Assembly (NCBI RefSeq): GCF_029227855.1
Contig: NZ_CP074356.1
DNA from: Escherichia coli
Lineage (GTDB): Bacteria > Pseudomonadota > Gammaproteobacteria > Enterobacterales > Enterobacteriaceae
Length of the DNA: 64,000 nt
Strand: one strand, 5' to 3'
Below the pieces are notes generated by a model. That model had not been told where the DNA came from, ran no database searches, and was given only the letters and a program-made list of their open reading frames with translations. Each line of letters begins with the position of its first letter. The first letter of the stretch is position 1. Of the stretch, positions 26,158-53,894 are shown in pieces. Position numbers and translations under genes: made by a program.

Positions 26158-27105
26158 ATGCGTGTGTTACTGGCACCGATGGAGGGTGTACTCGACTCTC
26201 TGGTGCGTGAATTGCTGACCGAAGTTAACGACTACGATCTGTGCATCACCGAGTTTGTCCGCGTGGTGGATCAACTGCTGCCGGTAAAAGTCTTTCATCG
26301 CATTTGCCCTGAGCTACAAAACGCCAGCCGGACACCATCCGGTACGCTGGTGCGCGTGCAGTTGTTAGGTCAGTTCCCACAATGGCTGGCAGAGAATGCC
26401 GCCCGTGCGGTCGAGTTAGGTTCCTGGGGCGTGGATCTCAATTGCGGCTGCCCGTCGAAAACGGTTAACGGTAGCGGCGGTGGGGCGACGTTACTCAAAG
26501 ATCCTGAACTCATCTATCAGGGTGCAAAAGCGATGCGTGAAGCTGTACCGGCGCATTTGCCCGTCAGCGTGAAAGTGCGTCTGGGCTGGGACAGCGGTGA
26601 GAAGAAATTTGAAATCGCCGATGCGGTGCAACAGGCTGGCGCTACGGAGCTGGTAGTACATGGGCGGACAAAAGAGCAGGGTTACCGCGCGGAGCATATT
26701 GACTGGCAGGCGATTGGCGAGATTCGCCAGCGGCTGAATATTCCGGTGATTGCCAACGGTGAAATTTGGGACTGGCAGAGCGCGCAACAATGCATGGCGA
26801 TCAGCGGCTGTGACGCAGTGATGATTGGTCGCGGGGCGCTCAATATTCCCAACCTGAGCCGGGTGGTAAAATATAACGAACCGCGAATGCCGTGGCCGGA
26901 GGTGGTTGCTTTGCTGCAAAAATATACCCGTCTGGAAAAGCAGGGCGATACCGGGTTATATCACGTAGCGCGGATTAAACAGTGGTTGAGTTATTTGCGT
27001 AAAGAATACGATGAAGCAACGGAATTATTTCAGCATGTTCGGGTGTTGAATAATTCCCATGATATTGCAAGGGCTATTCAGGCAATTGATATCGAGAAAC
27101 TCTAA
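26158..27105 (+). CDS. dusC: tRNA-dihydrouridine synthase C
   Basis: ORF 26092..27105 trimmed to [11 protein letters not shown].. (Dus family TIM barrel). Confidence 0.9.
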
Positions 27106-27257
27106 GAAACCATAGTGATGTTTTTTGACAATGTGTTAGCTCTTTATCAATAGGCCGCACGGTTGTTTGGTGGCGTCAAAATCGCCGAGGCGTTCCCTGA
27201 AGGCCGGGGCAGCCCACATGGATGTGGGCTGAGGGCGCGTTTTACAGGGATAATGAG

Positions 27258-27268
27258 ATGGACGCTCC
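27258..27268. repeat. Left subterminal inverted repeat of IS element
   Basis: atggacgctcc; reverse complement recurs at 28623..28633 and, imperfectly, over the transposase RBS at 27326..27335. Confidence 0.5.
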
Positions 27269-27336
27269 AGATTTTACGGTATCAAAGTACCAGACTGGAT
27301 CGTTGCAATACGTCCTGAAAAATTAGGAGCGTCCAC

Positions 27337-28362
27337 ATGAAAGTATCAACTCTTGGTATCGACTTGGCAAAGAACGTTTTTCAGCTTCATGGTGTCGATC
27401 ATGAAGGCCATACTATTTTGCGTAAAAAGCTCACCCGGGCTAAGTTTGTTCAGTTTGTGATTCAACTGGAACCTTGTCTGATTGGCATGGAAGCCTGCTC
27501 ATCCAGTCATTATTTTGCGCGATTATTCACCCGCTATGGTCATGAGGTAAAACTCATACCTCCGCAGTATGTGAAGCCTTATGTGAAAACGAACAAGACG
27601 GATGCAGCAGATGCTGAAGCAATCTGCGAAGCGGTAACCCGTCCGAATATGCGTTTTGTTCAGATAAAAACCGAAGAGCAGCAGGCCGTTTTAGCGTTAC
27701 ACACTGAACGGGGAATACTTATCCGTGAGCGGATTGCCTGTGCCAATAGTTTAAGAGCCACACTTGCTGAGTTTGGTATTACGATTGCGGCCGGACAAAA
27801 CCATTTAACCCGTGAGCTGCCAGCCATTCTGGAGGATGGCGAAAATGGTTTATCTCCCTTTGTCAGAACCAGCATCTACAGACAGTCTAAACATATCCGG
27901 GAACTTGAAGAACAAGTTAAACAGGTAGAAGAAGCTCTGGCCTCCTGGTATAGAACGCAGGAAGCCTGCCAGAGAATGGCCAAGATCCCGGGGGTTGGCA
28001 TGCTAACGGCCACTTATGTGGTAGCAGCAGTGGGTAATGCCCGACAATTCAGTACCGCAAAGCAGTTCGCTTCATGGCTGGGGCTGACACCAAAGGAACA
28101 TTCCAGCGGCGGGAAACAGCAACTGGGAGGGATCAGCAAACGTGGAGATGGATATTTCCGATACCTGCTGGTTCACGGCGCACGCGCACTTACCGCCTGG
28201 GTCAACCGAAACGGCGCGGTTGAGGAGAATTCCTGGCTTCAGGGACTCCTTGAGCGGAAGCACTACAATGTAGCTGTTGTCGCCATGGCGGCAAAAACAG
28301 CGAGGATCATGTGGTCAATATTGTCACACAATACTGAATATCAACCTCGGCAGCTCGCCTGA
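27337..28362 (+). CDS. IS110-family transposase/recombinase (DEDD RuvC-like N-domain plus C-terminal Ser domain)
   Basis: 341 aa; N-terminal GIDLAK, GMEACSS, DAADAEAI and C-terminal SSGG...GGISKRGD motifs typical of IS110/IS1111 transposases; resembles IS4321/IS5075 more than IS621. Confidence 0.9.
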   Translation: MKVSTLGIDLAKNVFQLHGVDHEGHTILRKKLTRAKFVQFVIQLEPCLIGMEACSSSHYFARLFTRYGHEVKLIPPQYVKPYVKTNKTDAADAEAICEAVTRPNMRFVQIKTEEQQAVLALHTERGILIRERIACANSLRATLAEFGITIAAGQNHLTRELPAILEDGENGLSPFVRTSIYRQSKHIRELEEQVKQVEEALASWYRTQEACQRMAKIPGVGMLTATYVVAAVGNARQFSTAKQFASWLGLTPKEHSSGGKQQLGGISKRGDGYFRYLLVHGARALTAWVNRNGAVEENSWLQGLLERKHYNVAVVAMAAKTARIMWSILSHNTEYQPRQLA

Positions 28363-28640
28363 CACAAGGTCAGTCAATCTGACGAGGTGCTGAAAAAAAG
28401 TTAACGTCCTGGTAGGTGCAAGTGACTTCAGAAGATGGCAAAACAGGTAAGACCGCAGGCAGGATACACCGAGAGGTAACAAGGGCAAGTTAGCCCGTAG
28501 AGGATGATTGGTACCTGCCTGGCGGATTTCATCATGGTTCGGGATAAAAATCCCATCAGAAACCGGATATATGGCTGCACCTACCCGTTTTATTACATAA
28601 CTGAAGAAAGCATTGCATTCCGGGAGCGTCCATATATGTT
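28363..28640 (+). ncRNA. Candidate IS-encoded guide (bridge/seek) RNA in right-end non-coding region
   Basis: IS1111-group elements encode their guide RNA downstream of the transposase; region has no ORF and several short stems (gtcagtcaatctgac); extent is guessed. Confidence 0.3.
28623..28633. repeat. Right subterminal inverted repeat of IS element
   Basis: ggagcgtccat, reverse complement of 27258..27268. Confidence 0.5.
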
Positions 28641-28863
28641 ACCTCGCGCCCGACCCGGTAGCCGTAAGGGATAAGCCGAGGGCACCGCGCAGCGGCGATT
28701 TTGTTCGCCAGAGCCCGGGGGGGCAGGGGGCGGCGGCGATTGGTCGCCCCCTGCGCGCTCCCTGCGCCAGTGATTATATGAAGCAATGCACATGACAGGA
28801 GCGCAACAGGATGAGAGACTGAAATATTCTCGTTATTTTCGGATCTGATGACATTAATTAATT

Positions 28864-28947
28864 TTAAAATATCATCTTAAATACGCCAGTCACCACCAGT
28901 AGCCCAATCAGGAAAATAATCAATACAGCCCAGAGTATAATTTTCAT
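28864..28947 (-). CDS. yohP: Small membrane protein YohP (27 aa)
   Basis: Minus-strand ORF MKIILWAVLIIFLIGLLVVTGVFKMIF, below the 60-aa cut-off of the ORF track. Confidence 0.7.
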   Translation of the reverse strand: MKIILWAVLIIFLIGLLVVTGVFKMIF

Positions 28948-29170
28948 TGGCGTTCCTTTATTTGTGAGTGCTGAATAAGTATAGGAAAAAACGAAGCCCT
29001 TTGCCGCTATCCATAAACGATTAAGATAAATCGGAAGATATCATTCACTTAGTGTATATTTTTCTGGATATGTCGTTTTATTGCCACTGATGTATTGCCA
29101 CGCGAAACTAAAAAATATATCGCAACACACGGTAATCTCCGCGCACCTTTTCTTACCTGATTATTCCCCC

Positions 29171-30607
29171 ATGAATCGTGATTTTTTTTATCCAGCCATC
29201 GCCTGTTTTCCGCTGTTACTGATGCTGACCGGGTGTGCGCCTATGCATGAAACCCGCCAGGCGTTAAGCCAGCAAACGCCCGCTGCACAAGTTGACACCG
29301 CATTACCCACGGCGCTGAAAAATGGTTGGCCAGACAGCCAATGGTGGCTGGAGTATCACGATAATCAACTCACTTCCTTAATTAATAACGCACTACAGAG
29401 CGCACCGGATATGCAGGTGGCTGAACAGCGCATTCAGCTGGCTGAAGCCCAGGCGAAGGCAATTGCCACTCAGGATGGTCCGCAGATCGACTTTTCTGCG
29501 GATATGGAGCGGCAAAAAATGTCTGCAGAAGGGTTAATGGGGCCGTTTGCTCTGAACGATCCTGCCGCAGGTACGACCGGTCCGTGGTACACCAACGGTA
29601 CTTTTGGCTTAACGGCGGGCTGGCATCTCGATATCTGGGGAAAGAATCGGGCGGAGGTTACTGCTCGCCTGGGTACGGTTAAAGCACGGGCGGCGGAACG
29701 CGAGCAAACCCGCCAATTGCTGGCTGGCAGCGTAGCCCGTCTGTACTGGGAGTGGCAAACCCAGGCGGCGTTAAACACTGTCTTACAGCAAATCGAAAAA
29801 GAGCAGAACACCATTATCGCCACCGATCGCCAGCTATATCAGAACGGGATTACTTCTTCAGTTGAAGGTGTGGAAACCGATATTAATGCCAGCAAAACCC
29901 GGCAGCAGCTCAACGATGTCGCGGGGAAAATGAAAATTATTGAGGCACGGTTAAATGCACTCACAAATCACCAGACAAAGGCATTGAAGCTTAATCCGGT
30001 CGCGTTGCCGAAAGTGGCAAGTCAGCTTCCTGATGAACTGGGGTACTCCTTACTGGCCCGGCGGGCAGATTTGCAGGCGGCGCACTGGTACGTTGAGTCA
30101 TCGTTAAGCACTATTGATGCGGCAAAAGCGGCATTTTATCCTGACATCAACCTGATGGCCTTCCTGCAACAGGATGCGTTGCACTTAAGCGATCTGTTCC
30201 GTCATTCCGCGCAGCAAATGGGCGTTACGGCAGGCCTGACGCTACCCATTTTCGATAGTGGTCGTCTTAACGCCAACCTCGATATCGCAAAAGCCGAAAG
30301 CAACTTGTCTATCGCCAGCTACAACAAAGCGGTGGTTGAAGCGGTGAATGACGTGGCGCGGGCAGCCAGTCAGGTTCAGACACTGGCGGAGAAAAACCAG
30401 CATCAGGCGCAAATTGAGCGCGATGCCTTGCGTGTAGTAGGTCTTGCGCAGGCGCGCTTTAACGCGGGCATCATTGCGGGTTCCCGCGTCAGCGAAGCCA
30501 GAATCCCCGCGCTGCGTGAGCGGGCCAATGGCCTGTTATTGCAAGGGCAGTGGCTGGATGCCTCCATTCAACTCACTGGTGCGTTGGGCGGGGGTTACAA
30601 ACGCTGA
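29171..30607 (+). CDS. mdtQ: Outer membrane efflux lipoprotein (OMF / NodT family) MdtQ, apparently intact
   Basis: ORF 29081..30607 trimmed to MNRDFFYP..; lipobox LTGC; two OEP-type repeats. Confidence 0.75.
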   Translation: MNRDFFYPAIACFPLLLMLTGCAPMHETRQALSQQTPAAQVDTALPTALKNGWPDSQWWLEYHDNQLTSLINNALQSAPDMQVAEQRIQLAEAQAKAIATQDGPQIDFSADMERQKMSAEGLMGPFALNDPAAGTTGPWYTNGTFGLTAGWHLDIWGKNRAEVTARLGTVKARAAEREQTRQLLAGSVARLYWEWQTQAALNTVLQQIEKEQNTIIATDRQLYQNGITSSVEGVETDINASKTRQQLNDVAGKMKIIEARLNALTNHQTKALKLNPVALPKVASQLPDELGYSLLARRADLQAAHWYVESSLSTIDAAKAAFYPDINLMAFLQQDALHLSDLFRHSAQQMGVTAGLTLPIFDSGRLNANLDIAKAESNLSIASYNKAVVEAVNDVARAASQVQTLAEKNQHQAQIERDALRVVGLAQARFNAGIIAGSRVSEARIPALRERANGLLLQGQWLDASIQLTGALGGGYKR

Positions 30608-30659
30608 TGATATGCGCCTTCTATACTTAACGTTTATTCAGCGTTAAGTGGAGAACTCG

Positions 30660-31421
30660 ATGGCACAGGTCGCGATTATTACCGCCTCCGATTCGGGGAT
30701 CGGCAAAGAGTGCGCGTTATTACTGGCGCAGCAGGGGTTTGATATTGGCATTACCTGGCACTCAGATGAATAAGGGGCAAAAGATACCGCGCGTGAGGTA
30801 GTTAGCCACGGCGTACGTGCGGAGATCGTGCAGCTGGATCTCGGCAATCTACCAGAAGGGGCACTGGCGCTGGAGAAACTCATTCAACGGCTGGGGCGTA
30901 TTGATGTGCTGGTGAATAATGCGGGCGCAATGACCAAAGCGCCGTTTCTTGATATGGCTTTCGATGAGTGGCGCAAGATTTTTACCGTTGATGTCGATGG
31001 TGCATTTTTATGCTCGCAAATTGCTGCCCGCCAGATGGTGAAACAAGGGCAGGGTGGTCGCATCATCAACATTACGTCGGTGCATGAACATACGCCGTTG
31101 CCGGATGCCAGCGCCTACACAGCCGCTAAACATGCGCTCGGCGGGTTAACCAAAGCGATGGCGCTGGAGCTGGTCAGGCATAAGATTTTGGTGAATGCGG
31201 TTGCACCTGGGGCGATCGCCACGCCAATGAACGGCATGGATGATGGCGACGTGAAGCCCGGCGCGGAGCCTTCGATTCCCTTGCGGCGTTTTGGCGCAAC
31301 GCATGAGATTGCCAGCCTGGTGGTGTGGCTTTGTTCGGAGGGCGCAAATTACACCACTGGGCAGTCGTTGATAGTGGATGGCGGCTTTATGCTGGCGAAT
31401 CCGCAGTTCAAGCCAGAATAG
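30660..31421 (+). pseudogene. yohF: Short-chain dehydrogenase YohF with in-frame ochre codon at codon 38
   Basis: ATG at 30660, Rossmann SDSGIGK motif, then TAA at 30771..30773; same frame continues as an SDR to 31421. Confidence 0.8.
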
Positions 31422-31459
31422 CGCAGTGAGGTGCGTGGTTATTTCAATGGGTAATATTT

Positions 31460-31545
31460 GGGTAGGCATGATAAGACGCACAAGCGTCGCATCAGGCATG
31501 GTGCACCGGATGTCGGATGCGGCGCGAACGCCTTATCCTAGGCAA
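31460..31545. repeat. Tandem REP elements
   Basis: gcatgataagacgca...gcgtcgcatcaggc and ccggatgtcggatgcggcgcgaacgccttatcc between yohF and yohD. Confidence 0.65.
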
Positions 31546-31550
31546 TGGTT

Positions 31551-32129
31551 TTACGCCTGATTATCCGGCTTTTTCTTCCCGCGCCGTTTCAGCCACCAGC
31601 GCACGCCTACCACCAGAACCACGACCAGAATCAACCAGACCCAGTGCTTCAAATGCTGGTCGAGATTGTGCAACCACGGCGCAATCACCTGACCACCAGC
31701 GTAACCGATAGTGGTAAAAATCAACGCCCAGGCAAATGCGCCAAGGATATTCAGTGGCAGAAAGATTTTCGGCGGCAGCTGGCTGGCACCAATCAGCGTC
31801 GGGCCAATGACCCGAAAGCCATACATAAAGCGCGTACCAATGACAAACAGATACGGATGGCGTTGGATAAGTTTCTGCGCCCGCTCAATTTTATCCTGAT
31901 GTTTCGAGAAACGGCGTAACAGCTTGCCGCCAAACCGCCGCCCGCACAGATAAAGCACCTGGTCGCCAATCATGCCGCCAAGCGCCACAGAAAGTACCAC
32001 CAGCGGGAACTTTAATAGCCCCTGATGTGCCGCAACGCCTCCCAGCAAAGTCACGGTTTCACCTTCCGCCAGGCTACCGATCACCAGCGCGGCATAACCA
32101 TATTGTGAGATGAGTGTATTGAGATCCAT
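31551..32129 (-). CDS. yohD: DedA-family inner membrane protein YohD
   Basis: 192 aa. Confidence 0.85.
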   Translation of the reverse strand: MDLNTLISQYGYAALVIGSLAEGETVTLLGGVAAHQGLLKFPLVVLSVALGGMIGDQVLYLCGRRFGGKLLRRFSKHQDKIERAQKLIQRHPYLFVIGTRFMYGFRVIGPTLIGASQLPPKIFLPLNILGAFAWALIFTTIGYAGGQVIAPWLHNLDQHLKHWVWLILVVVLVVGVRWWLKRRGKKKPDNQA

Positions 32130-32298
32130 AGGCCAGTCTGTCTCCCTTTAGTTGCCTGTAAGCATACACCCTGTGAATAGTTCACGCTGACAAAGGACAT
32201 ACATCAGACGCTGCAAATTACATGAGCGAACAAAAAATAATCACAAGCTGACTTATACTTGAACTGTCAGGTTCATGAACTCACAACAAGGGGGCGGT

Positions 32299-32886
32299 AT
32301 GAGCCATGTCTGGGGACTGTTTTCCCATCCCGATCGTGAAATGCAGGTGATTAATCGTGAAAACGAAACGATTTCTCATCACTACACCCACCACGTTTTG
32401 CTGATGGCGGCGATTCCGGTGATTTGCGCCTTCATTGGCACTACACAGATTGGCTGGAATTTTGGCGATGGCACTATTCTGAAGTTATCCTGGTTTACCG
32501 GACTGGCGCTGGCTGTCTTGTTTTACGGCGTTATGCTGGCTGGGGTCGCGGTGATGGGGCGGGTCATCTGGTGGATGGCGCGCAATTACCCACAGCGTCC
32601 GTCACTTGCGCACTGCATGGTCTTCGCGGGCTACGTTGCAACTCCGCTGTTTTTAAGCGGTCTGGTGGCGCTTTATCCGCTGGTCTGGTTGTGTGCGCTG
32701 GTCGGCACGGTGGCGCTGTTTTACACCGGCTACCTGCTTTATCTCGGTATTCCGAGCTTCCTGAATATCAACAAAGAGGAAGGCCTTAGCTTCTCCAGTT
32801 CGACGCTGGCGATAGGCGTGCTGGTGCTGGAAGTGCTGCTCGCCCTTACCGTTATACTATGGGGTTACGGTTATCGTTTGTTCTAG
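32299..32886 (+). CDS. yohC: Yip1-family inner membrane protein YohC
   Basis: ORF 32275..32886 trimmed to MSHVWGLFSHPD.. Confidence 0.8.
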   Translation: MSHVWGLFSHPDREMQVINRENETISHHYTHHVLLMAAIPVICAFIGTTQIGWNFGDGTILKLSWFTGLALAVLFYGVMLAGVAVMGRVIWWMARNYPQRPSLAHCMVFAGYVATPLFLSGLVALYPLVWLCALVGTVALFYTGYLLYLGIPSFLNINKEEGLSFSSSTLAIGVLVLEVLLALTVILWGYGYRLF

Positions 32887-33059
32887 AAAGTTCTTTTGTG
32901 TTGCATTGCTGGCGTAAATGTCAGCAATGCAGCATTTCCTCACGATTCTCCTTTGACGATCGCACTTTTTGCTCGTTATGATGGCGTCGCTAGCCTCAGT
33001 AAATCCTTACTCCGGCGGTGCGCAACCCGTGCGCGTGAACCACTATCTGAATGCTCATC

Positions 33060-33992
33060 ATGCCGAAATTTCGAGTTTCTTTATTTAGCCTGGCCCTGAT
33101 GCTGGCTGTGCCTTTGGCACCGCAGGCCGTTGCGAAAACGGCAGCCGCTACCACCGCTTCACAGCCGGAAATTGCCTCCGGTAGCGCGATGATTGTTGAT
33201 CTGAATACCAACAAAGTGATCTATTCGAACCACCCGGATCTGGTGCGTCCGATTGCGTCTATCAGCAAATTAATGACCGCGATGGTCGTGCTGGATGCGC
33301 GACTGCCGCTGGATGAAAAACTAAAAGTGGATATCAGCCAGACGCCGGAGATGAAAGGGGTCTATTCGCGCGTACGACTGAACAGCGAAATCAGCCGTAA
33401 AGATATGCTGTTGTTGGCGCTGATGTCTTCAGAAAACCGCGCGGCGGCAAGCCTTGCGCACCATTATCCCGGTGGTTACAAAGCCTTTATTAAGGCGATG
33501 AATGCGAAAGCGAAATCGCTCGGAATGAACAACACGCGCTTTGTTGAACCGACCGGATTGTCGGTGCATAACGTTTCAACCGCCCGTGACTTAACCAAAC
33601 TGCTCATTGCCAGCAAACAATATCCGTTGATCGGGCAGTTAAGTACTACCCGGGAAGATATGGCAACCTTCTCTAACCCGACGTATACGCTGCCATTCCG
33701 CAATACTAACCATCTGGTGTATCGCGATAACTGGAATATTCAGTTAACCAAAACCGGCTTTACCAATGCGGCGGGCCATTGTCTGGTGATGCGTACGGTT
33801 ATCAATAATAAACCGGTGGCGCTGGTAGTGATGGACGCGTTTGGCAAATATACCCATTTTGCCGATGCCAGCCGCCTGCGTACCTGGATTGAAACCGGTA
33901 AAGTGATGCCTGTTCCGGCAGCAGCGTTGAGCTATAAAAAACAAAAAGCCGCCCAGATGGCGGCGGCGGGGCAGACGGCACAGAACGATTAA
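33060..33992 (+). CDS. pbpG: D-alanyl-D-alanine endopeptidase PBP7
   Basis: ORF 33051..33992 trimmed to MPKFRVSLF..; SxxK (SISK) and SEN motifs. Confidence 0.9.
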
Positions 33993-34030
33993 ATGAATGA
34001 CGGATGGCGATACTCTGCCATCCGTAATTT

Positions 34031-35746
34031 TTACTCCACTTCCTGCCAGTTTTTCCGCTTACTGGTTTTACCGATCCCCGGATTCATGCTGTTGGTCGGA
34101 TCGTTCTCGCGATAAAACTTCTGCAACGTCTCCGGTGCTTTATACAAATGACCGACGTTATGCTCGGCAGGGTACTGCGCGCCGCGCTGCTGTAGCAGTT
34201 CCAGCATCTGTTCTTTCAACGCATGCACATCCACGCCTTTTTTAACGATGTAATCCTGATGGAAGACATAGCACATAAAATGGCCGTAATAGAGCTTGTG
34301 CACCAGCTGGCTGTCGATGTCCGGCGGTAAATGCTCATACCACTCGGTGTCGTTACGCCGCAGAGCGATATCCAGTGCCAGAATGTCTTCGACTTCATCG
34401 GAATGCACCGCCTGATAACGAATTGCTGCGCCCGCAGCGGCGAAACGGTGTAAAAACGCTTTGCTACCTTCCTCCGGCGTACAGACAAAGAAATCGCCTT
34501 CGGCCTGTTTGAAATAATCCACCAGCCACGATTTGGCTTCACCGACGCCATCGCCCGCCATTTTTAACAGCAGATGATGCTCGTATTTATCGCGCCAGTT
34601 TTTCATGCGCGGCGGTAAATGGCTGGGGAACAGGTGACCGAATTTTTGCATCGCACGGTCGGTAAAATGCGGACGGAAGAATTTCACTTTCTCCAGCATC
34701 GCATCGGTGCGCCCCTTGAGATTAAAGAAGAACGGCATCTTGTCGGTGCCTAACTTATCAATCATCAGGAAGGTGTCTTTGCCGTATTTTTCCGCAATAT
34801 CGTAGATATCCCGGTGCATATATTCCCCGGCAACCGGCAGATTTTCGAAATTAGCCAGAATATGACGGCGGATTTCGGTCAGCACTTCCGGCTGGTTGGT
34901 ACCGATATAAAACACCTGCTGATTTTTTTCCGCTTCGAAGGTATCAAGACGTACCGCAAAGACGGCCAGCTTCCCGGCGCAACCAGAAGATTCAAATAAC
35001 CGATCCGGATCGGCGTTATAACGTGCGGGCGTGTCGGCTTCAATATCACGAACGCGGTGGACATAGTCATAATCGTGGGCGTGACGACCATCGTGACGCA
35101 CATCGTCATCTTTGATGCGATCGTCATCCAGCTTGCTAAGGATCTGCTCCGGCGTTTCGCCGAGCTCAATCCCCAGATGGTTCACCAGCGTCAGCTTGCC
35201 ATCTTCATTTATACGCGCGAATAACGACATTTCGGTATACGCCGGGCCACGTTGCACCAGTGAACCACCAGAGTTATTACAGATACCGCCGATAACCGAT
35301 GCGCCTATACACGATGATCCAATCACCGAGTGCGGTTCGCGTCCCAGCGGTTTGAGGGCTTTTTCCAGCGAATAGAGCGTGGTGCCCGGATAGGCCAGCA
35401 CCTGTTCGCCCTTGCCAAGAACGTGCAGCTTGTCGAGACGCAGGGTGCTGATGATCACGATATCGCGATCATAGTCGTTACCGTTTGGCGTCGAGCCTTC
35501 GGTCAGACCTGTATTGGCAGCCTGCATCAGAATAATTTTGTCGGCGGTGACGCAGGCTTTCAGCACCCGCCACAATTCCAGTAGTGAGCCAGGGAAAACG
35601 ACAGCCAGTGCGTCGCCCTGACCAGAACGGAAGCCCTTGCGATAGCGGGCCGTTTTTGCGGGATCGGTGAGCAGGTGTGAAGAACCCACCAGTCGGGCAA
35701 GTTCATTCAAAAAGGCTTTATTATCAGTTGTTGTCATGGAAGACAT
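34031..35746 (-). CDS. dld: FAD-dependent D-lactate dehydrogenase
   Basis: ORF 34031..35779 trimmed to MSSMTTTDNK.. (571 aa). Confidence 0.95.
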   Translation of the reverse strand: MSSMTTTDNKAFLNELARLVGSSHLLTDPAKTARYRKGFRSGQGDALAVVFPGSLLELWRVLKACVTADKIILMQAANTGLTEGSTPNGNDYDRDIVIISTLRLDKLHVLGKGEQVLAYPGTTLYSLEKALKPLGREPHSVIGSSCIGASVIGGICNNSGGSLVQRGPAYTEMSLFARINEDGKLTLVNHLGIELGETPEQILSKLDDDRIKDDDVRHDGRHAHDYDYVHRVRDIEADTPARYNADPDRLFESSGCAGKLAVFAVRLDTFEAEKNQQVFYIGTNQPEVLTEIRRHILANFENLPVAGEYMHRDIYDIAEKYGKDTFLMIDKLGTDKMPFFFNLKGRTDAMLEKVKFFRPHFTDRAMQKFGHLFPSHLPPRMKNWRDKYEHHLLLKMAGDGVGEAKSWLVDYFKQAEGDFFVCTPEEGSKAFLHRFAAAGAAIRYQAVHSDEVEDILALDIALRRNDTEWYEHLPPDIDSQLVHKLYYGHFMCYVFHQDYIVKKGVDVHALKEQMLELLQQRGAQYPAEHNVGHLYKAPETLQKFYRENDPTNSMNPGIGKTSKRKNWQEVE

Positions 35747-35941
35747 TTTCCACTCCTTGTGGTGGCGAAAAAATATCACAAACTAGAATAGCGCCTTGTA
35801 TGACAATTCAGCGAGTGAATATTTTGAAAATTCAGACAATAAACTGAGCATTCTTTTTCTCTCTCCATCATGCTTATGGCAAACTACGGTTTTTGCACCA
35901 TTTTCGCTGCCTCGTCGGGCAACAGAGGAAGAAAAATCCAT

Positions 35942-38239
35942 ATGAAATGGCTATGTTCAGTAGGAATCGCGGTGAGTCTGGCCCTGCAGCCAGCACTGGC
36001 GGATGATTTATTCGGCAACCATCCATTAACGCCCGAAGCGCGGGATGCGTTCGTCACCGAACTGCTTAAGAAAATGACAGTTGATGAGAAAATTGGTCAG
36101 CTGCGCTTAATCAGCGTCGGCCCGGATAATCCGAAAGAGGCGATCCGCGAGATGATCAAAGACGGGCAGGTTGGGGCGATTTTCAACACCGTAACCCGTC
36201 AGGATATCCGCGCCATGCAGGATCAGGTGATGGAATTAAGCCGCCTGAAAATTCCTCTTTTCTTTGCTTACGACGTGCTGCACGGTCAGCGCACGGTGTT
36301 CCCGATTAGCCTCGGTCTGGCCTCGTCTTTTAACCTCAATGCGGTGAAAACAGTCGGGCGTGTCTCTGCTTATGAAGCGGCAGATGATGGCCTGAATATG
36401 ACCTGGGCACCGATGGTCGATGTCTCGCGCGATCCGCGCTGGGGACGTGCTTCCGAAGGTTTTGGCGAAGATACGTATCTCACCTCAATAATGGGTAAAA
36501 CCATGGTGGAAGCGATGCAGGGTAAAAGCCCGGCAGATCGCTACTCGGTGATGACCAGCGTCAAACACTTTGCCGCTTACGGCGCGGTAGAAGGCGGTAA
36601 AGAGTACAACACCGTCGATATGAGTCCGCAGCGCCTGTTTAATGATTATATGCCGCCGTACAAAGCGGGGCTGGACGCAGGCAGCGGCGCGGTGATGGTG
36701 GCGCTGAACTCGCTGAACGGCACGCCAGCCACCTCCGATTCATGGCTGCTGAAAGATGTTCTGCGCGACCAGTGGGGCTTTAAAGGCATCACCGTTTCCG
36801 ATCACGGCGCAATCAAAGAGCTGATTAAACATGGCACGGCGGCAGACCCGGAAGATGCGGTGCGCGTGGCGCTGAAATCCGGCATCAACATGAGTATGAG
36901 CGACGAGTACTACTCGAAGTATCTGCCTGGGTTGATCAAGTCTGGCAAAGTGACCATGGCAGAGCTGGATGACGCTGCCCGTCATGTACTGAACGTTAAA
37001 TATGATATGGGGTTGTTTAACGACCCGTACAGCCATCTCGGTCCGAAAGAGTCTGACCCGGTGGATACCAATGCCGAAAGCCGCCTGCACCGCAAAGAAG
37101 CGCGTGAAGTGGCACGCGAAAGCCTGGTGTTGCTGAAAAACCGTCTCGAAACGTTACCGCTGAAAAAATCAGCCACCATTGCGGTGGTTGGGCCACTGGC
37201 GGACAGCAAACGTGACGTGATGGGAAGCTGGTCCGCAGCCGGTGTTGCCGATCAATCCGTGACCGTACTGACCGGGATTAAAAATGCCGTCGGTGAAAAC
37301 GGTAAAGTGCTGTACGCCAAAGGGGCGAACGTCACCAGTGACAAAGGCATTATCGATTTCCTGAATCAGTATGAAGAGGCGGTCAAAGTCGATCCGCGTT
37401 CGCCGCAAGAGATGATTGATGAAGCGGTGCAAACCGCGAAACAATCTGATGTGGTGGTGGCTGTGGTCGGTGAAGCTCAGGGGATGGCGCACGAGGCTTC
37501 CAGCCGTACCGATATTACTATTCCGCAAAGCCAACGTGACTTGATTGCGGCGCTGAAAGCCACCGGTAAACCGCTGGTGCTGGTGCTGATGAACGGGCGT
37601 CCGCTGGCGCTGGTGAAAGAAGATCAGCAGGCTGATGCGATTCTGGAAACCTGGTTTGCGGGGACTGAAGGCGGTAATGCAATTGCCGATGTGTTGTTTG
37701 GTGATTACAACCCGTCCGGCAAGCTACCGATGTCCTTCCCGCGTTCTGTCGGGCAGATCCCTGTGTACTACAGCCATCTGAATACCGGGCGTCCGTATAA
37801 TGCCGACAAGCCGAACAAATACACGTCGCGTTATTTTGATGAAGCTAACGGGGCGCTTTATCCGTTCGGCTATGGTCTGAGCTATACCACTTTCACCGTC
37901 TCTGATGTGAAACTTTCTGCGCCGACCATGAAGCGTGACGGCAAAGTGACCGCCAGCGTGCAGGTGACGAACACCGGTAAGCGCGAAGGGGCGACGGTAG
38001 TGCAGATGTACTTGCAGGATGTGACGGCTTCCATGAGTCGTCCGGTGAAGCAGCTGAAAGGCTTTGAGAAAATCACCCTGAAACCGGGCGAAACTCAGAC
38101 CGTCAGCTTCCCGATTGATATTGAGGCGCTGAAGTTCTGGAATCAACAGATGAAATATGACGCCGAGCCTGGCAAGTTCAATGTCTTTATCGGCACTGAT
38201 TCCGCACGCGTTAAGAAAGGCGAGTTTGAGTTGCTGTAA
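35942..38239 (+). CDS. bglX: Periplasmic beta-glucosidase (GH3)
   Basis: ORF 35870..38239 trimmed to MKWLCSVGIAVSLALQPALA signal peptide (765 aa). Confidence 0.95.
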   Translation: MKWLCSVGIAVSLALQPALADDLFGNHPLTPEARDAFVTELLKKMTVDEKIGQLRLISVGPDNPKEAIREMIKDGQVGAIFNTVTRQDIRAMQDQVMELSRLKIPLFFAYDVLHGQRTVFPISLGLASSFNLNAVKTVGRVSAYEAADDGLNMTWAPMVDVSRDPRWGRASEGFGEDTYLTSIMGKTMVEAMQGKSPADRYSVMTSVKHFAAYGAVEGGKEYNTVDMSPQRLFNDYMPPYKAGLDAGSGAVMVALNSLNGTPATSDSWLLKDVLRDQWGFKGITVSDHGAIKELIKHGTAADPEDAVRVALKSGINMSMSDEYYSKYLPGLIKSGKVTMAELDDAARHVLNVKYDMGLFNDPYSHLGPKESDPVDTNAESRLHRKEAREVARESLVLLKNRLETLPLKKSATIAVVGPLADSKRDVMGSWSAAGVADQSVTVLTGIKNAVGENGKVLYAKGANVTSDKGIIDFLNQYEEAVKVDPRSPQEMIDEAVQTAKQSDVVVAVVGEAQGMAHEASSRTDITIPQSQRDLIAALKATGKPLVLVLMNGRPLALVKEDQQADAILETWFAGTEGGNAIADVLFGDYNPSGKLPMSFPRSVGQIPVYYSHLNTGRPYNADKPNKYTSRYFDEANGALYPFGYGLSYTTFTVSDVKLSAPTMKRDGKVTASVQVTNTGKREGATVVQMYLQDVTASMSRPVKQLKGFEKITLKPGETQTVSFPIDIEALKFWNQQMKYDAEPGKFNVFIGTDSARVKKGEFELL

Positions 38240-38248
38240 TGCTTTAGT

Positions 38249-38274
38249 AAGGGCGCGACGTTTGCGCCCTTTGC
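38249..38274 (+). terminator. Rho-independent terminator downstream of bglX
   Basis: aagggcgc-gacgttt-gcgccctt stem-loop plus T-run. Confidence 0.7.
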
Positions 38275-38313
38275 CTGATGTTCATATCTTAACTTGCTGA
38301 ATTTTCGCCCTTT

Positions 38314-38350
38314 GTAGGCCGGATAAGGCGCTCGCGCCGCATCCGGCAGG
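38314..38350. repeat. REP element
   Basis: gtaggccggataaggcgctcgcgccgcatccggcagg. Confidence 0.75.
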
Positions 38351-38490
38351 AAACGCCGGACCGAATATGCCTCTTAAGTATTTATCTGATTCTGCAACTG
38401 AATCCTTCCGCTCAGGCTAACCCCGCCATTATCAACTATGCTTTTCTCTTAATTCGCTGAAAACAACAGTAAAAGAATGAGGAAAGCATC

Positions 38491-39408
38491 ATGCCACTCT
38501 CAAAGGTCTGGGCAGGTTCACTGGTTCTGATGGCAGCCGTGAGCCTGCCGCTACAGGCGGCTTCCCCCGTTAAGGTCGGTTCAAAAATCGATACCGAAGG
38601 CGCGCTGCTCGGCAATATCATTTTGCAGGTGCTGGAAAGTCACGGTGTTCCTACGGTAAATAAAGTGCAACTGGGAACGACTCCCGTGGTGCGCGGGGCG
38701 ATTACTTCCGGTGAACTGGATATCTATCCGGAATATACCGGCAATGGCGCGTTTTTCTTTAAAGATGAAAACGATGCGGCATGGAAAAATGCCGGGCAGG
38801 GCTACGAGAAAGTCAAAAAGCTCGATGCAGAGCAAAACAAGTTAATCTGGCTGACGCCCGCACCTGCGAATAACACCTGGACCATCGCCGTGCGTCAGGA
38901 TGTGGCAGAGAAAAACAAACTCACTTCGCTTGCTGACCTGAGTCGTTATCTGAAAGAGGGCGGCACCTTCAAACTGGCTGCCTCAGCAGAGTTTATCGAA
39001 CGCGCCGATGCGTTACCCGCGTTTGAAAAAGCCTATGGCTTTAAGCTCGGTCAGGATCAGTTGCTGTCACTGGCTGGTGGCGACACGGCGGTGACGATCA
39101 AAGCCGCTGCCCAGCAAACCTCTGGCGTTAATGCGGCGATGGCTTACGGCACTGACGGCCCGGTCGCGGCGCTGGGGCTGCAAACCTTAAGCGATCCGCA
39201 AGGCGTGCAACCTATCTACGCGCCTGCACCAGTGGTGCGTGAGTCGGTGTTGAAAGAGTATCCACAAATGGCACAGTGGTTACAGCCAGTCTTCGCCAGC
39301 CTCGATGAAAAAACATTGCAGCAACTGAATGCCAGCATTGCTGTGGAAGGACTGGATGCCAAAAAAGTGGCTGCCGACTACCTGAAACAAAAAGGGTGGA
39401 CGAAGTAA
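38491..39408 (+). CDS. osmF: Glycine betaine/osmoprotectant-binding periplasmic protein
   Basis: 305 aa with signal peptide; first gene of osmF-yehYXW ABC operon. Confidence 0.9.
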   Translation: MPLSKVWAGSLVLMAAVSLPLQAASPVKVGSKIDTEGALLGNIILQVLESHGVPTVNKVQLGTTPVVRGAITSGELDIYPEYTGNGAFFFKDENDAAWKNAGQGYEKVKKLDAEQNKLIWLTPAPANNTWTIAVRQDVAEKNKLTSLADLSRYLKEGGTFKLAASAEFIERADALPAFEKAYGFKLGQDQLLSLAGGDTAVTIKAAAQQTSGVNAAMAYGTDGPVAALGLQTLSDPQGVQPIYAPAPVVRESVLKEYPQMAQWLQPVFASLDEKTLQQLNASIAVEGLDAKKVAADYLKQKGWTK

Positions 39409-39414
39409 TTTCCC

Positions 39415-40572
39415 GTGACTTATCTACGTATTAATCCTGTTCTGGCGCTGCTGCTGTTGCTGACGGCAATCGCAGCGGCGCTGCCGTTTATCAGTTACGC
39501 GCCTAATCGTTTAGTTTCGGGTGAGGGGCGTCATCTCTGGCAGCTGTGGCCGCAAACGATCTGGATGCTGGTGGGCGTTGGTTGCGCCTGGATGACAGCC
39601 TGTTTTATTCCCGCTAAAAAAGGCAGCATTTTTGCACTCATTCTGGCGCAATTCGTCTTCGTATTGCTGGTGTGGGGAGCAGGAAAGGCGGCGACACAAC
39701 TGGCACAAAATGGCAGTGCGCTGGCGCGTACCAGCCTCGGCAGTGGTTTCTGGCTGGCTGCGGCGCTGGCATTGCTGGCCTGTAGCGATGCCATCCGCCG
39801 AATCTCCACGCATCCGCTGTGGCGCTGGTTGTTGCATATGCAGATTGCCATCATTCCGCTGTGGTTACTGTACTCCGGCACGCTTAACGATCTCTCGCTA
39901 ATGAAAGAATACGCCAACCGTCAGGATGTGTTTGACGACGCGCTGGCACAACATCTGACGTTGCTGTTTGGTGCGGTGCTGCCTGCGTTAGTGATTGGTG
40001 TGCCGTTGGGCATCTGGTGCTACTTTTCCACCGCGCGGCAGGGGGCGATTTTTTCGCTACTCAATGTCATTCAGACCGTGCCTTCGGTGGCGCTCTTTGG
40101 CCTGTTGATTGCGCCGCTTGCCGCGCTGGTTACGGCCTTTCCGTGGCTGGGTAAGCTCGGCATAGCAGGAACCGGAATGACACCCGCACTGATTGCGCTG
40201 GTGCTCTATGCCTTGCTGCCGCTGGTGCGCGGCGTGGTAGTCGGCTTGAACCAGATCCCGCGCGATGTGCTGGAGAGCGCCAGAGCGATGGGCATGAGCG
40301 GGGCGCAGCGATTCCTGCATGTTCAGTTACCGCTGGCGTTACCGGTATTTCTGCGTAGCCTGCGGGTGGTGATGGTGCAAACCGTCGGCATGGCGGTGAT
40401 TGCGGCGTTAATCGGCGCAGGCGGTTTTGGTGCGCTGGTTTTCCAGGGGCTGCTAAGCAGTGCCATTGATTTAGTGTTGCTGGGGGTGATCCCGGTAATT
40501 GTTCTGGCGGTGCTGATCGATGCGCTGTTCGATTTGCTTATCGCACTGCTGAAGGTGAAACGTAATGATTGA
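39415..40572 (+). CDS. yehY: Osmoprotectant ABC transporter permease
   Basis: 385 aa membrane permease. Confidence 0.9.
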
Positions 40573-41491
40573 ATTTAGCCATGTCAGCAAACTGTTCGGC
40601 GCACAAAAAGCCGTTAACGATCTCAATCTCAATTTTCAGGAAGGGAGTTTTTCGGTGCTGATTGGTACATCAGGCTCCGGCAAATCCACCACCCTGAAAA
40701 TGATCAACCGCCTGGTGGAGCATGACAGCGGCGTGATCCGCTTTGCCGGAGAAGAAATTCGCTCGCTGCCAGTACTGGAGTTGCGCCGCCGGATGGGCTA
40801 CGCCATTCAATCTATTGGCCTGTTCCCCCACTGGAGCGTGGCGCAAAACATCGCTACCGTGCCGCAATTACAAAAATGGTCGCGGGCGCGGATTGACGAT
40901 CGTATCGACGAATTAATGGCGCTACTGGGGCTGGAGCCAAATTTGCGTGAGCGTTATCCGCATCAGCTTTCTGGCGGTCAGCAGCAACGTGTGGGAGTGG
41001 CGCGCGCACTGGCTGCCGATCCGCAAGTCTTACTGATGGATGAACCTTTTGGCGCACTGGACCCGGTAACGCGCGGCGCGTTGCAACAAGAGATGACGCG
41101 CATTCACCGTTTGCTGGGGCGCACTATTGTGCTGGTCACTCATGATATTGATGAGGCGCTACGGCTGGCAGAACATCTGGTATTGATGGATCACGGTGAA
41201 GTGGTGCAGCAGGGCAATCCGCTGACGATGCTGACTCGTCCGGCGAATGATTTTGTCCGCCAGTTTTTTGGGCATAGTGAACTGGGTGTCCGCCTGCTTT
41301 CGTTACGTAGCGTGGCGGATTACGTGCGTCGCGAAGAACGGGCAGAAGGTGAGGCGCTGGCAGAAGAGATGACGCTACGCGATGCGCTCTCCCTGTTTGT
41401 CGCGCGGAGATGTGAAGTGCTGCCGGTGGTGAACACGCAGGGCGAGCCTTGCGGCACGCTGCATTTTCAGGATCTGCTGGTGGAGGCGTAA
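40565..41491 (+). CDS. yehX: Osmoprotectant ABC transporter ATP-binding protein
   Basis: 308 aa; Walker [18 protein letters not shown] signature. Confidence 0.9.
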
Positions 41492-41495
41492 GCGT

Positions 41496-42227
41496 ATGAA
41501 GATGTTGCGCGATCCGCTGTTCTGGCTCATTGCTCTGTTTGTGGCGCTGATTTTCTGGCTGCCTTACAGCCAGCCGCTGTTTGCCGCCTTGTTCCCACAA
41601 CTGCCACGACCCGTTTATCAGCAAGAAAGTTTTGCAGTTCTGGCACTGGCTCATTTCTGGCTGGTGGGAATTTCGAGTTTGTTTGCGGTGATCATTGGTA
41701 CTGGTGCCGGAATTGCTGTCACTCGCCCTTGGGGCGCGGAATTTCGCCCACTGGTGGAAACTATTGCCGCCGTTGGACAGACTTTTCCGCCCGTCGCGGT
41801 GCTGGCGATTGCCGTTCCGGTGATCGGCTTTGGTCTGCAACCCGCGATTATCGCCTTGATCCTTTACGGCGTGCTGCCCGTCCTGCAGGCAACACTTGCC
41901 GGGCTGGGAGCGATTGATGCCAGCGTGACAGAAGTTGCGAAAGGTATGGGAATGAGCCGTGGTCAGCGACTGCGTAAGGTCGAGCTACCGCTGGCGGCTC
42001 CGGTGATTCTGGCGGGCGTGCGAACTTCGGTGATTATCAACATTGGTACGGCGACGATCGCCTCAACGGTAGGGGCCAGCACGCTGGGTACGCCGATCAT
42101 CATCGGGCTTAGCGGATTTAATACCGCGTATGTGATCCAGGGGGCGTTACTGGTGGCACTGGCGGCGATCATTGCAGACCGCCTGTTTGAAAGGCTGGTG
42201 CAGGCGCTTAGCCAGCACGCAAAATAA
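41496..42227 (+). CDS. yehW: Osmoprotectant ABC transporter permease
   Basis: 243 aa. Confidence 0.9.
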
Positions 42228-42316
42228 AGGTATAACCTGCGAGCATGACGCCACCAATTCCGCCTAACGCCATAAACAGGAACAGGGCGATGACCCCAAT
42301 TTTAGCTATGCGCATA
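42209..42316 (-). CDS. yohO: Small membrane protein YohO (35 aa)
   Basis: Minus-strand [38 protein letters not shown], convergent with and overlapping the 3' end of yehW; below ORF-track cut-off. Confidence 0.6.
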
Positions 42317-42374
42317 ATGCACTCCTTATGTTAACGAAAGGATTGTACAGTAAAGCGCATTTGTTAACGAATCA

Positions 42375-48874: not shown

Positions 48875-50007
48875 GACTGAAGATTCTCCGCAAGCCAGGT
48901 CGCCAGTTCGCCCGGCGTCATGGCGGCTATTTGTGCACCGACATTAACCAGTGCCTGGGCCATATCGCGGTCATAGCAAGGTGTTGCGGTGCTATCGAGC
49001 GCCGCCAGTCCCAGCACTTTGACGCCGCTCTGGACACACTTTTTCACCTGATGCGTCAGCAATGATGATGAACCCCCTTCATAGAAATCGCTCACGAGGA
49101 TAATGACGCTTTTCGCTGGTTGTTCAATAAGTTGCCGACCATACTCCACGGCACTGGCGATATTGGTCCCGCCGCCCAGTTGTACTTTCATTAATAACTC
49201 TACTGGATCAGCAACGTCTGCCGTGAGATCAACGACGCTGGTGTCAAACGCCACCAGATGGGTACGAATGCCGGGTAACTGCCATAAACAGGCCGCCATC
49301 ACCGCAGAGTGGATCACCGAATCGACCATCGATCCGCTTTGATCAACCAGTAAGACCAGTTGCCATTGTTCGCTTTGGCGTTTAATGCGGCTGTTAAAGC
49401 GGGGGGATTCGATATACAACTTGTCGTGTTGCGGGTGCCAGTGTTGCAGGTTGGCGCGCAGAGTACTTTTGAAATCAAAGTTTCGCGCCAGTGGAATAAA
49501 TGAGCGGCGACGGCGATCGCGGACACCAGAAAAAGCCTGACGAACTTCCTTTGCCAGTCGCGCCATAATTTCTTCAACTACCTGGCGCACTATCCGGCGG
49601 GCGGCAGCCAGCACTTCGGGATTCATCAGATGTTTGGTGTGCAAAACGGCGCGTAACAGGCTTTCAGAAGGCTGCATACGTTCCAGCACGTCGAGATTCG
49701 TCAGCACATCTTCAATGCCGTAGCGCAGTACGGCATCGCTTTCCAGCCGCTCGATCACCTGTTGCGGAAACAGCGTGTGAATACTGTTGATCCACTCAGG
49801 GGTGGTGAGATTTGAGCCACCTAATCCACCAGAGCGTTCACCACGCTGGAGCCGTTCAGGATCGCGCCCATACAGCCACTCCAGCGCGTGGTCTATCTGC
49901 CGGGCGTTGTCATCCAGCCCACAAAGGGTCGTTTCTGCCGCTTCGCCAAGAATTAATCGCCAGCGTTGTAGCTCACGGGTGGTCAGAAGATCGTTCAGTT
50001 CAGACAT
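48871..50007 (-). CDS. yehP: von Willebrand factor A (VWA) domain protein YehP
   Basis: ORF 48871..50235 trimmed to MSELNDLL.. (378 aa); DxSGS MIDAS-like motif (VDQSGSM). Confidence 0.85.
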   Translation of the reverse strand: MSELNDLLTTRELQRWRLILGEAAETTLCGLDDNARQIDHALEWLYGRDPERLQRGERSGGLGGSNLTTPEWINSIHTLFPQQVIERLESDAVLRYGIEDVLTNLDVLERMQPSESLLRAVLHTKHLMNPEVLAAARRIVRQVVEEIMARLAKEVRQAFSGVRDRRRRSFIPLARNFDFKSTLRANLQHWHPQHDKLYIESPRFNSRIKRQSEQWQLVLLVDQSGSMVDSVIHSAVMAACLWQLPGIRTHLVAFDTSVVDLTADVADPVELLMKVQLGGGTNIASAVEYGRQLIEQPAKSVIILVSDFYEGGSSSLLTHQVKKCVQSGVKVLGLAALDSTATPCYDRDMAQALVNVGAQIAAMTPGELATWLAENLQS

Positions 50008-52231: not shown

Positions 52232-52241
52232 GCATCTTTCC

Positions 52242-53319
52242 TCACGGCAGGCGGTGGCGGGCTTGATAATAAGCCTGCCAGTGAGCTTCTTTATGTGTGG
52301 CGACACGCTGTTCGAAGTAACGGCGCAGACGCGCGCGATCTTCTTCGTTATCTTTAACGATGGTTCCGGCAATACAGTCCACCAGATCGGCTGGCTCACC
52401 TGCGCGATTCGCTAAAAACCAGGCGCGGACGCCCACTGCGTGGGCCACGTTCACGGCTTCAGCGGTGGATATAATTGCCGTCAGAGTATCCATTGACGTT
52501 TTCTTTTCGCCGTTGGCACGCAGATCGCGGAAGGTGCGGACCAGTAACTCCAGTACCGCGTCAGGCACTTTATGCGGAATACCGCTATGGGCCAGCAAAC
52601 GCGCCGAAGCACTGGCGACCAGTTCCAGCTCCTGGGCGAAATCCATAATCGGAAAGACGGTTTCAAAATCGAAGCGACGCTTTAGCGCGGCACTCATCTC
52701 ATTGACGCCGCGATCGCGGGTATTGGCAGTGGCAATAATATTAAAGCCTTCCCGCGCATAGAGCTGACTGGCTTCACCGGTGAGTTCCGGCACCGTCATC
52801 ACCCTGTCAGAAAGCATACCTAACAGACAGTCTTGTACTTCCAGCGGTGTACGCGTTATCTCTTCAAAACGGACGATTTTGCCGTCGCGCATTCCCTGGT
52901 AAAGCGGGGCAGGGACCAGTGCTTCCGTAGACGGACCATGGTTGATAAGCAGGGCGTAGTTCCATTTGATCTTCAGTAGTAGATGCGCCGCCCTGGATGG
53001 TTAACCCGGCATCGCCGCTAATAGCGGTTGCCAGTAATTCAGACAGGAGAGATTTTGCGGTGCCCGGTTCCCCCACCAACATCAAACCGCGCCCGGTGGC
53101 AAGAGTGACTAACATACGTTCGACAGCGGAGGGACTAATCACCACTTTACGGCTAATATTTTGCGCGCTATCGCCAAGGATAAAAGCACGGGCCGCAGGC
53201 AAACTTAACTGCCAACCGGGCGGGCAAGGTGCGTTATCATTTTGTTTTAATTTTGCCAGTTCATCGGCGTATAACACAGCAGCAGGCGGACGCTGCAGAT
53301 GATTATTCTGCGGTGACAT
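52242..53319 (-). pseudogene. yehL: MoxR-type AAA+ ATPase YehL, frameshifted
   Basis: Walker A GEPGTAKS lies in ORF 52864..53385; continuation ([26 protein letters not shown]) is in another frame from about 52965; total span 1078 nt is not a multiple of 3. Confidence 0.7.
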
Positions 53320-53431
53320 ATATTCATCCCTGAAATGTATTAATGAAATAAACGATATTTTACGCGCAATAAATGTTTGGCGCATTAGTTGTTTGAGCGA
53401 AAAATATCTGGAAAGCAGATCACAGTAAATA

Positions 53432-53513: not shown

Positions 53514-53519
53514 GAACGA

Positions 53520-53841: not shown

Positions 53842-53863
53842 TGGGCAAATTGAAACGCATCTA

Positions 53864-53887: not shown

Positions 53888-53894
53888 AATAAAG

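Follow-up and report, generated by a model that had tools for sequence, protein, structure and literature searches.

yohP and yohO, two known small membrane-protein genes, in a 64-kb window of the Escherichia coli chromosome

YohP is an actively studied model of small-membrane-protein insertion and of stress physiology. The protein is made in stationary phase and under starvation (PMC12719787, PMC12542507), is recognised post-translationally by the SRP and inserted via SecYEG or YidC, adopts a mostly N-out/C-in topology and dimerises through Gly15 (PMC7549839). When abundant, YohP partly dissipates the membrane potential, which leads to the stringent and phage-shock responses, and the depolarisation also condenses the nucleoid and puts the cell into a metabolically quiet state (PMC12719787, PMC12542507). 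The Salmonella counterpart, STnc1330/yohP, is a small ORF orthologous to it; it has a sigma-S-type promoter and is expressed in stationary phase, and its dependence on RpoS has been demonstrated (PMC5437024). For E. coli yohP the same dependence is predicted from its -10 box. Translation is documented for YohP and for YohO: tagged YohP has been detected in E. coli (PMC12719787) and in Salmonella (PMC5437024), and YohO has been seen both by top-down mass spectrometry (PMC12529367) and by ribosome profiling (bioRxiv 10.1101/2020.05.05.079178).

Two small genes below the ORF cut-off

The DNA analysed here, a single window of 64,000 nucleotides, is E. coli chromosome and shows 7 differences over its 64 kb from strain JNEC-KY178, in which RefSeq annotates both yohP and yohO. 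The first-pass annotation, made with an ORF list that stopped at 60 aa, had proposed two small membrane-protein genes of these names below the cut-off and had pointed to the K-12 annotations for comparison. That comparison supports both the names and the reading: the two window ORFs are identical, nucleotide by nucleotide, to K-12 b4679 (yohP) and b4542 (yohO), and their products score above the curated cut-offs of the corresponding NCBIfam equivalog models. The hydrophobic character ascribed to them is also borne out (GRAVY 2.47 for YohP and 1.58 for YohO).

Very short reading frames are abundant in this DNA: the window holds 750 that start with ATG and encode 15-59 aa. When these were filtered for a GRAVY of at least 1.5 and an anti-Shine-Dalgarno (SD) duplex of -5 kcal/mol or lower, only yohP and yohO were left, and the RefSeq annotation of the window holds no CDS shorter than 60 aa besides these two. 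The whole is best explained, with a probability of about 0.95, by yohP and yohO being genuine, annotated genes that encode single-pass inner-membrane proteins. The result is correct but ordinary, both genes being already known, conserved and annotated.

yohO and its overlap with yehW

The yohO CDS (42208..42315, minus strand, 35 aa) was placed by its translation, the RefSeq CDS, its identity to K-12 b4542 and the family model NF010225. The first-pass annotation had the gene, the strand and the length right; the interval that it gave, 42209..42316, is displaced by +1, so that it misses the frame and runs into an internal stop codon. YohO matches the NF010225 equivalog over residues 1-35 of 35 with 80.1 bits (cut-off 57). 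Our local Pfam scan of YohO returned no match to a YohO family, and PF27791 (UPF0387_membrane) is found only as a precomputed assignment on homologues, including a Salmonella protein in the same 90% cluster as the YohO of the window. Searches of PDB sequences with YohP and YohO found no relatives. Compared with the K-12 protein (b4542; UPF0387), the DNA, the protein, the position after mlrA and the 20-bp overlap with yehW are all the same, and no difference was found.

An SD sequence, AAGGAG, lies 6 nt before the ATG (42322..42327, minus strand); its duplex of -8.8 kcal/mol ranks 4th among the 750 short ORFs. Further upstream, 28 nt after the mlrA stop codon, is a putative -10 box of its own, TACAAT (42342..42347, minus strand). 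Both signals are conserved, as AaGGAg and TAtAaT, in a set of 87 distinct upstream sequences that spans many Enterobacterales genera, the -10 box irrespective of which gene lies upstream. We had considered a tight operon with mlrA as the main link of yohO and rejected it, since the -10 box is kept where mlrA is absent. The promoters proposed here for yohO and yohP were placed from conservation only, because a simple sigma-70 consensus scan of the minus strand found none for either gene; a terminator scan of the same strand likewise gave nothing useful for the two.

With its 35 aa, YohO falls within the family length of 34-37 aa, and it carries at residues 18-28 the core GGIGGVML(A/V)GY, whose invariance in our sample was imposed by the search pattern. 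The AlphaFold2 model of the protein (mean pLDDT 86.5) has helices at residues 3-18 and 20-34, consistent with one long predicted transmembrane helix that would be kinked at the GGIGG core. The small-residue face G18-G22-A26 may pack against another helix, either that of a second YohO or one of a larger membrane protein.

yehW (41496..42227, plus strand, from the ORF list and RefSeq) is the last gene of the osmF-yehYXW operon, which encodes a glycine betaine ABC transporter. As the first-pass annotation had noticed, yohO and yehW overlap convergently at their 3' ends; ORF and RefSeq coordinates set the overlap at 20 bp (42208..42227). Of the 74 loci that have yehW as the neighbour of yohO, 73 retain such an overlap, of 17-26 bp; it is thus a feature of Enterobacteriaceae at large, while the gene upstream of yohO varies between mlrA, btsS, metG and a gene for a TonB-dependent receptor. 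This retention of the convergent overlap in all but one of the loci where the two genes adjoin is the only mildly new point of the analysis.

Pectobacteriaceae and Erwinia retain yohO in the absence of yehW beside it. The loci inspected there, ten in all, come from Dickeya, Brenneria, Lonsdalea, Affinibrenneria and Erwinia, and in them yohO sits mostly beside bglX or an idi-like gene.

The kept overlap raises the possibility that yohO is tied functionally to YehZYXW (OsmF-YehYXW), in either of two ways: YohO could regulate the transporter or serve it as a small accessory subunit, in the manner of KdpF with KdpABC and AcrZ with AcrB, or transcription of yohO, running antisense into the 3' end of yehW, could hold back the yeh operon, so that expression of either gene would shut out the other, as in an excludon. 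The persistence of the overlap while the upstream gene changes would fit such a tie, as would the finding that neither strand has a terminator-like site between yohO and yehW, and the pair is one entry among the convergent excludons listed from E. coli RNA-seq (PMC12288877). YohO also resembles KdpF, AcrZ, MgtS and CydX in being, by prediction, a single transmembrane helix of less than 50 aa, and its gene adjoins a transporter operon; unlike theirs, however, yohO is convergent to the operon and not co-transcribed with it. Moreover, 19 yohO loci have no adjacent yehW, and all ten of those inspected still carry yohO. The overlap by itself locks the two genes together physically, since a breakpoint between them damages one or the other, so the kept adjacency needs no functional link. 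We regard a role of YohO, or of yohO transcription, in the YehZYXW system as unlikely.

yohP, its signals and the neighbouring insertion sequence

The yohP CDS (28864..28947, minus strand, 27 aa) lies exactly where the first-pass annotation had put it, as shown by its translation and by the RefSeq CDS WP_000691708.1, and its assignment is further supported by identity to K-12 b4679 and by the family models. The product, MKIILWAVLIIFLIGLLVVTGVFKMIF followed by the stop codon, is a hydrophobic helix flanked by K2 and K24 and carrying G15, and it matches the NCBIfam equivalog NF011345 over residues 1-27 of 27 with 67.3 bits (cut-off 58) and Pfam PF25659 with 50.6 bits (cut-off 27). An SD sequence, AAGGA, is found 6 nt before the ATG (28954..28958, minus strand; duplex -5.6 kcal/mol), and a putative -10 region of sigma-S type, CTATACT with a C at -13, at 28978..28984 on the same strand. 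In 56 distinct upstream sequences the A.G core of the SD is conserved, and CTAnACT, the box shared with Salmonella STnc1330/yohP, is conserved to at least 90%. No significant structure emerged when the mRNA region of yohP was folded (z = -1.64). yohP is a monocistronic gene between the divergent mdtQ and the convergent dusC, with the putative sigma-S-type -10 region and the SD in front of it.

The window gene equals K-12 yohP in DNA, protein, position between mdtQ and dusC, SD and -10 region. The two loci differ in that mdtQ is an intact ORF in the window and a pseudogene in K-12, and in that the window carries an IS110-family insertion sequence (27252..28635, plus strand) downstream of yohP. 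Its breakpoints, taken from the K-12 alignment, have a 2-bp AT ambiguity; its transposase ORF (27337..28362, plus strand) matches Pfam DEDD_Tnp_IS110 and Transposase_20 and is named 'IS110 family RNA-guided transposase' by RefSeq. The alignment sets the distance from the end of the element to the yohP stop codon at 228 bp, close to the 'about 225 bp' of the first-pass annotation. Similarity stops 2 nt past the yohP stop codon in about 2000 E. coli genomes, so the 3' flank of the gene is naturally variable. The idea that the element disturbs yohP was rejected on account of this variability and of its position, 228 bp beyond the stop codon, and the element is most likely without effect on the gene.

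The physiology of YohP invites comparison with type I toxins. Like TisB and HokB, it is a small hydrophobic protein whose production lowers the membrane potential (PMC12542507); the comparison is drawn by the YohP authors themselves, who report a drop in membrane potential, a condensed nucleoid and less protein synthesis when YohP is produced (PMC12719787, PMC12542507). Could yohP then encode the toxic, depolarising half of a type I toxin-antitoxin-like module? Unlike that of TisB and HokB, its effect is reported to be sublethal, and loss of yohP lowers survival under stress (PMC12719787). Around yohP (26900..29300) Rfam detects no antisense-RNA family: at E<=1 the scan returned just two sub-threshold chance matches, a scan that an undescribed RNA would escape. 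Type I toxins typically show a patchy, multi-copy distribution, while yohP belongs to the conserved core genes, as one chromosomal copy that keeps its place; of 5426 complete E. coli genomes, 5423 have the yohP region. On this evidence a toxin module is very improbable.

Coding-type conservation of yohP and yohO

Relatives of the two genes were gathered by degenerate DNA-pattern scans and exact-cluster look-up, and those of YohO also by a representative search. The ORF is 27 aa long in 114 of the 122 metagenome matches to yohP, and 34-37 aa long in 91 of the 93 genome matches to yohO, which come from many Enterobacterales genera. The surroundings of yohP are conserved as well: in 80 of 99 loci the upstream neighbour is mdtQ, and in 58 of 70 the downstream one is dusC. 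Outside the search patterns the substitutions are mostly synonymous. For yohP, codons 2-14 were chosen because they lie outside the pattern, which itself imposes the invariance of the C-terminal half of YohP, and they gave a pS of 0.60 and a pN of 0.058; for yohO the comparison was limited to codons 2-17, leaving out those fixed by the pattern. The resulting pN/pS ratios, 0.10 for yohP and 0.56 for yohO, the latter the lowest among the six frames, are rough because pS is near saturation.

The notion that yohP and yohO are chance open frames, or that the yohP transcript is a non-coding sRNA, draws on their very small size among the 750 short ORFs that arise in the window by chance alone and on the Salmonella counterpart having first been catalogued as a presumed non-coding sRNA, STnc1330 (PMC5437024), but it is refuted in substance by purifying selection confined to the annotated frame, ORF lengths conserved across species, strong SD sites on both genes and the published detection of both proteins. 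An absence of translation signal and of conservation, which the first-pass annotation had named as what would speak against the two genes, is thus the opposite of what was found.

That a 60-aa ORF cut-off conceals known small genes is a well-recognised limitation, and in this respect the result matters little. The comparative data on YohO, namely its GGIGG core, its own conserved promoter and the pattern of overlap with, or absence of, yehW, may help its functional study.

Identity of yohP and yohO

The first-pass annotation had proposed two minus-strand genes for small membrane proteins, both below the 60-aa ORF cut-off. To place them we used the RefSeq annotation of strain JNEC-KY178 (NZ_AP045174.1), which matches both sub-regions at 100% and differs from the window at only 7 positions over its full length, so that its annotation can be transferred directly to window coordinates. 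The interval proposed for yohP, 28864..28947 (-), was exact: it translates as MKIILWAVLIIFLIGLLVVTGVFKMIF followed by a stop, and RefSeq annotates it as a CDS for 'small membrane protein YohP'. The yohO gene also stood (RefSeq CDS 'protein YohO'), but the interval 42209..42316 proposed for it is out of frame and contains a stop; the true ORF, 35 aa plus stop, lies one base away at 42208..42315. Both genes are annotated at the same places in K-12 MG1655 (b4679 and b4542), and every nucleotide of each is identical to its K-12 counterpart. The window contains no other CDS shorter than 60 aa in the RefSeq annotation, and the list of two is therefore complete.

Family models gave the same identities. 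YohP exceeded the cut-offs of two models, NCBIfam NF011345 (67.3 bits; cut-off 58) and Pfam PF25659 (50.6 bits; cut-off 27), and YohO that of NCBIfam NF010225 (80.1 bits; cut-off 57); PF27791 (UPF0387_membrane) is assigned to YohO homologues by precomputed annotation, and the source names recorded in the protein collection are consistent with both identities. Each of the two regions occurs in 5423 of the 5426 complete E. coli genomes searched. In a chance test covering all ATG-started ORFs of 15-59 aa in the six frames of the window (750 candidates), only yohP and yohO combined a GRAVY of at least 1.5 with a predicted anti-Shine-Dalgarno duplex at least as stable as -5 kcal/mol; yohP ranked first in hydrophobicity and yohO fourth in Shine-Dalgarno strength. 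K-12 identity, family models and the conservation described below thus support the names and the reading as two small membrane-protein genes. Apart from the one-base slip in yohO the observation is correct; it holds nothing novel, because both genes were already known and annotated.

Conservation of yohP and the neighbouring IS element

A degenerate DNA pattern for GLLVVTGVFKMIF matched more than 120 metagenome contigs; of 122 matches, 114 have an ORF of exactly 27 aa. Codons 2-14 are left free by the pattern; there, column entropy was 0.38, 0.08 and 0.86 bits at the three codon positions, and pooled Nei-Gojobori proportions gave a pS of 0.60 and a pN of 0.058 (ratio 0.10), far below the ratio in the other five frames. 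One metagenome contig (L185) carries two matches, about 970 bp apart. Among loci with enough flank, 80 of 99 have mdtQ as the divergent upstream neighbour, and 58 of 70 have dusC as the convergent downstream one. When 56 distinct upstream regions were aligned, the box CTAnACT, followed by the Shine-Dalgarno sequence, showed no less than 90% conservation. Its form in the window, CTATACT (28984..28978), would represent an extended -10 typical of sigma-S promoters, in agreement with findings in Salmonella, where the orthologue, originally catalogued as the sRNA STnc1330, depends on RpoS (PMC5437024).

The window carries an intact mdtQ ORF (29171..30607) for a 478-aa outer-membrane efflux protein (Pfam OEP), whereas in K-12 mdtQ is a pseudogene; intact alleles have been noted in other strains (PMC12719787). 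An in-frame stop is read at codon 38 of yohF (30660..31421), marked as a pseudogene in RefSeq, and yehM, yehL and yehI (about 50000..57906) are marked as internal-stop or frameshifted in JNEC-KY178; these lesions may be genuine or may stem from assembly errors.

Aligned with K-12, the spacer between dusC and yohP contains 1384 extra bp (27252..28635), and a 2-bp AT is found at each junction. This IS110-family element encodes a 341-aa protein with DEDD_Tnp_IS110 and Transposase_20 domains, labelled 'RNA-guided transposase' in RefSeq, and has only 85 bp of non-coding DNA on the 5' side of the transposase ORF and 273 bp on the 3' side. Among 5426 complete E. coli genomes, 179 carry the element, with 1-4 copies apiece; in 94 of the 179 it is at this exact site. 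A gap of 228 bp separates its right end from the yohP stop codon, in line with the first estimate of about 225 bp, and the element lies outside the coding region. Moreover, the 3' flank of yohP (28800..28862) exists in at least two forms within E. coli, since in about 2000 complete genomes (e.g. ST131, O103:H2) similarity to the window begins only at 28862, 2 nt past the stop. Because the element is outside the coding region and this flank is naturally variable, the IS is unlikely to affect yohP.

Predicted promoter and genomic context of yohO

A phmmer search of the whole library with YohO yielded no more than 17 cluster representatives, among them several frameshifted assembly artefacts. A DNA pattern for GGIGGVML[AV]GY, applied to a set of species-representative genomes, found 93 loci, in genera including Escherichia, Salmonella, Citrobacter, Kosakonia, Cedecea, Buttiauxella, Atlantibacter, Franconibacter, Siccibacter, Shimwellia, Mangrovibacter, Erwinia, Dickeya, Brenneria, Lonsdalea and Sodalis. 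Of these loci, 91 have an ORF of 34-37 aa in which the motif begins at the same codon. Over codons 2-17, which lie outside the pattern, the entropies at the three codon positions were 1.15, 0.59 and 1.53 bits and pN/pS was 0.56, the lowest among the six frames, with pS near saturation. One locus (L065, CACSKA010000001.1), labelled Chryseobacterium sp. 18061, has an enterobacterial-type yohO whose protein is identical to that of Citrobacter sp. 18056; this assembly is probably mislabelled or contaminated.

Three elements are common to 87 distinct yohO upstream sequences: a TAtAaT box, TAACA and AAGGAG, present in the window as TACAAT (42347..42342), TTAACA (42334..42329) and AAGGAG (42327..42322). 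As the box is kept also at loci with a gene other than mlrA upstream, yohO is predicted to have its own promoter. The mlrA stop lies 59 bp upstream of the yohO start, and read-through from mlrA may reach yohO as well. Two TTAACA copies, each within GTTAACA (42362..42367 and 42329..42334), flank the -10 box at a spacing of 33 bp, and each reaches at least 60% conservation in the upstream regions of Enterobacteriaceae; the pair could be an operator for some regulator, or a 5'-UTR element.

The convergent overlap of yohO with the 3' end of yehW (41496..42227, +), described in the first-pass annotation, measures 20 bp. It raises the possibility that yohO is functionally coupled to the YehZYXW transporter, which we consider improbable. 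Of the 74 loci with an adjacent yehW-like permease gene, 73 retain an overlap of 17-26 bp, which measures exactly 20 bp in 49, while the upstream gene varies between mlrA, btsS, metG and a TonB-dependent receptor gene. A scan of the window found no terminator-like site between the two genes on either strand, and the pair is listed among the convergent excludons of an RNA-seq survey (PMC12288877). However, an overlap by itself makes two genes hard to separate, and 19 loci were found without an adjacent yehW-like gene. The ten of these inspected (Dickeya, Brenneria, Lonsdalea, Affinibrenneria and Erwinia) all keep yohO, which in Pectobacteriaceae adjoins bglX or an idi-like gene and has no intervening yeh operon; the Erwinia loci also lack an adjacent yehW.

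Properties of the YohO and YohP proteins

YohO has been seen by top-down mass spectrometry (PMC12529367) and by ribosome profiling (bioRxiv 10.1101/2020.05.05.079178). Our literature search found no functional study of it, and a PDB sequence search no solved structure of a relative. An AlphaFold2 model built with 30 homologues (mean pLDDT 86.5) contains helices at 3-18 and 20-34, and YohO is thus modelled as a single membrane-spanning helix broken at Gly19. Three positions outside the search pattern hardly vary: residue 5, which is K or R, Ala16 and Ile31. G18, G22 and A26 occupy positions i, i+4 and i+8 and form a small-residue face. Such faces mediate helix-helix packing, and because of this one YohO may pack against another transmembrane helix, through which, we infer, it would act.

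YohP is an integral inner-membrane protein, for the most part N-out/C-in, that forms SDS-resistant dimers requiring Gly15, is recognised post-translationally by SRP and inserts via SecYEG or YidC (PMC7549839). Levels of native SPA-tagged YohP go up when cells are in stationary phase, grow in minimal medium or are limited for oxygen (PMC12719787). Two reports (PMC12719787; PMC12542507) describe YohP production as lowering membrane potential and membrane fluidity, raising cardiolipin, inducing the stringent and phage-shock responses, condensing the nucleoid, and interfering with magainin-2 oligomerisation. Because the YohP encoded here is identical to the protein studied, these published properties should transfer to it.
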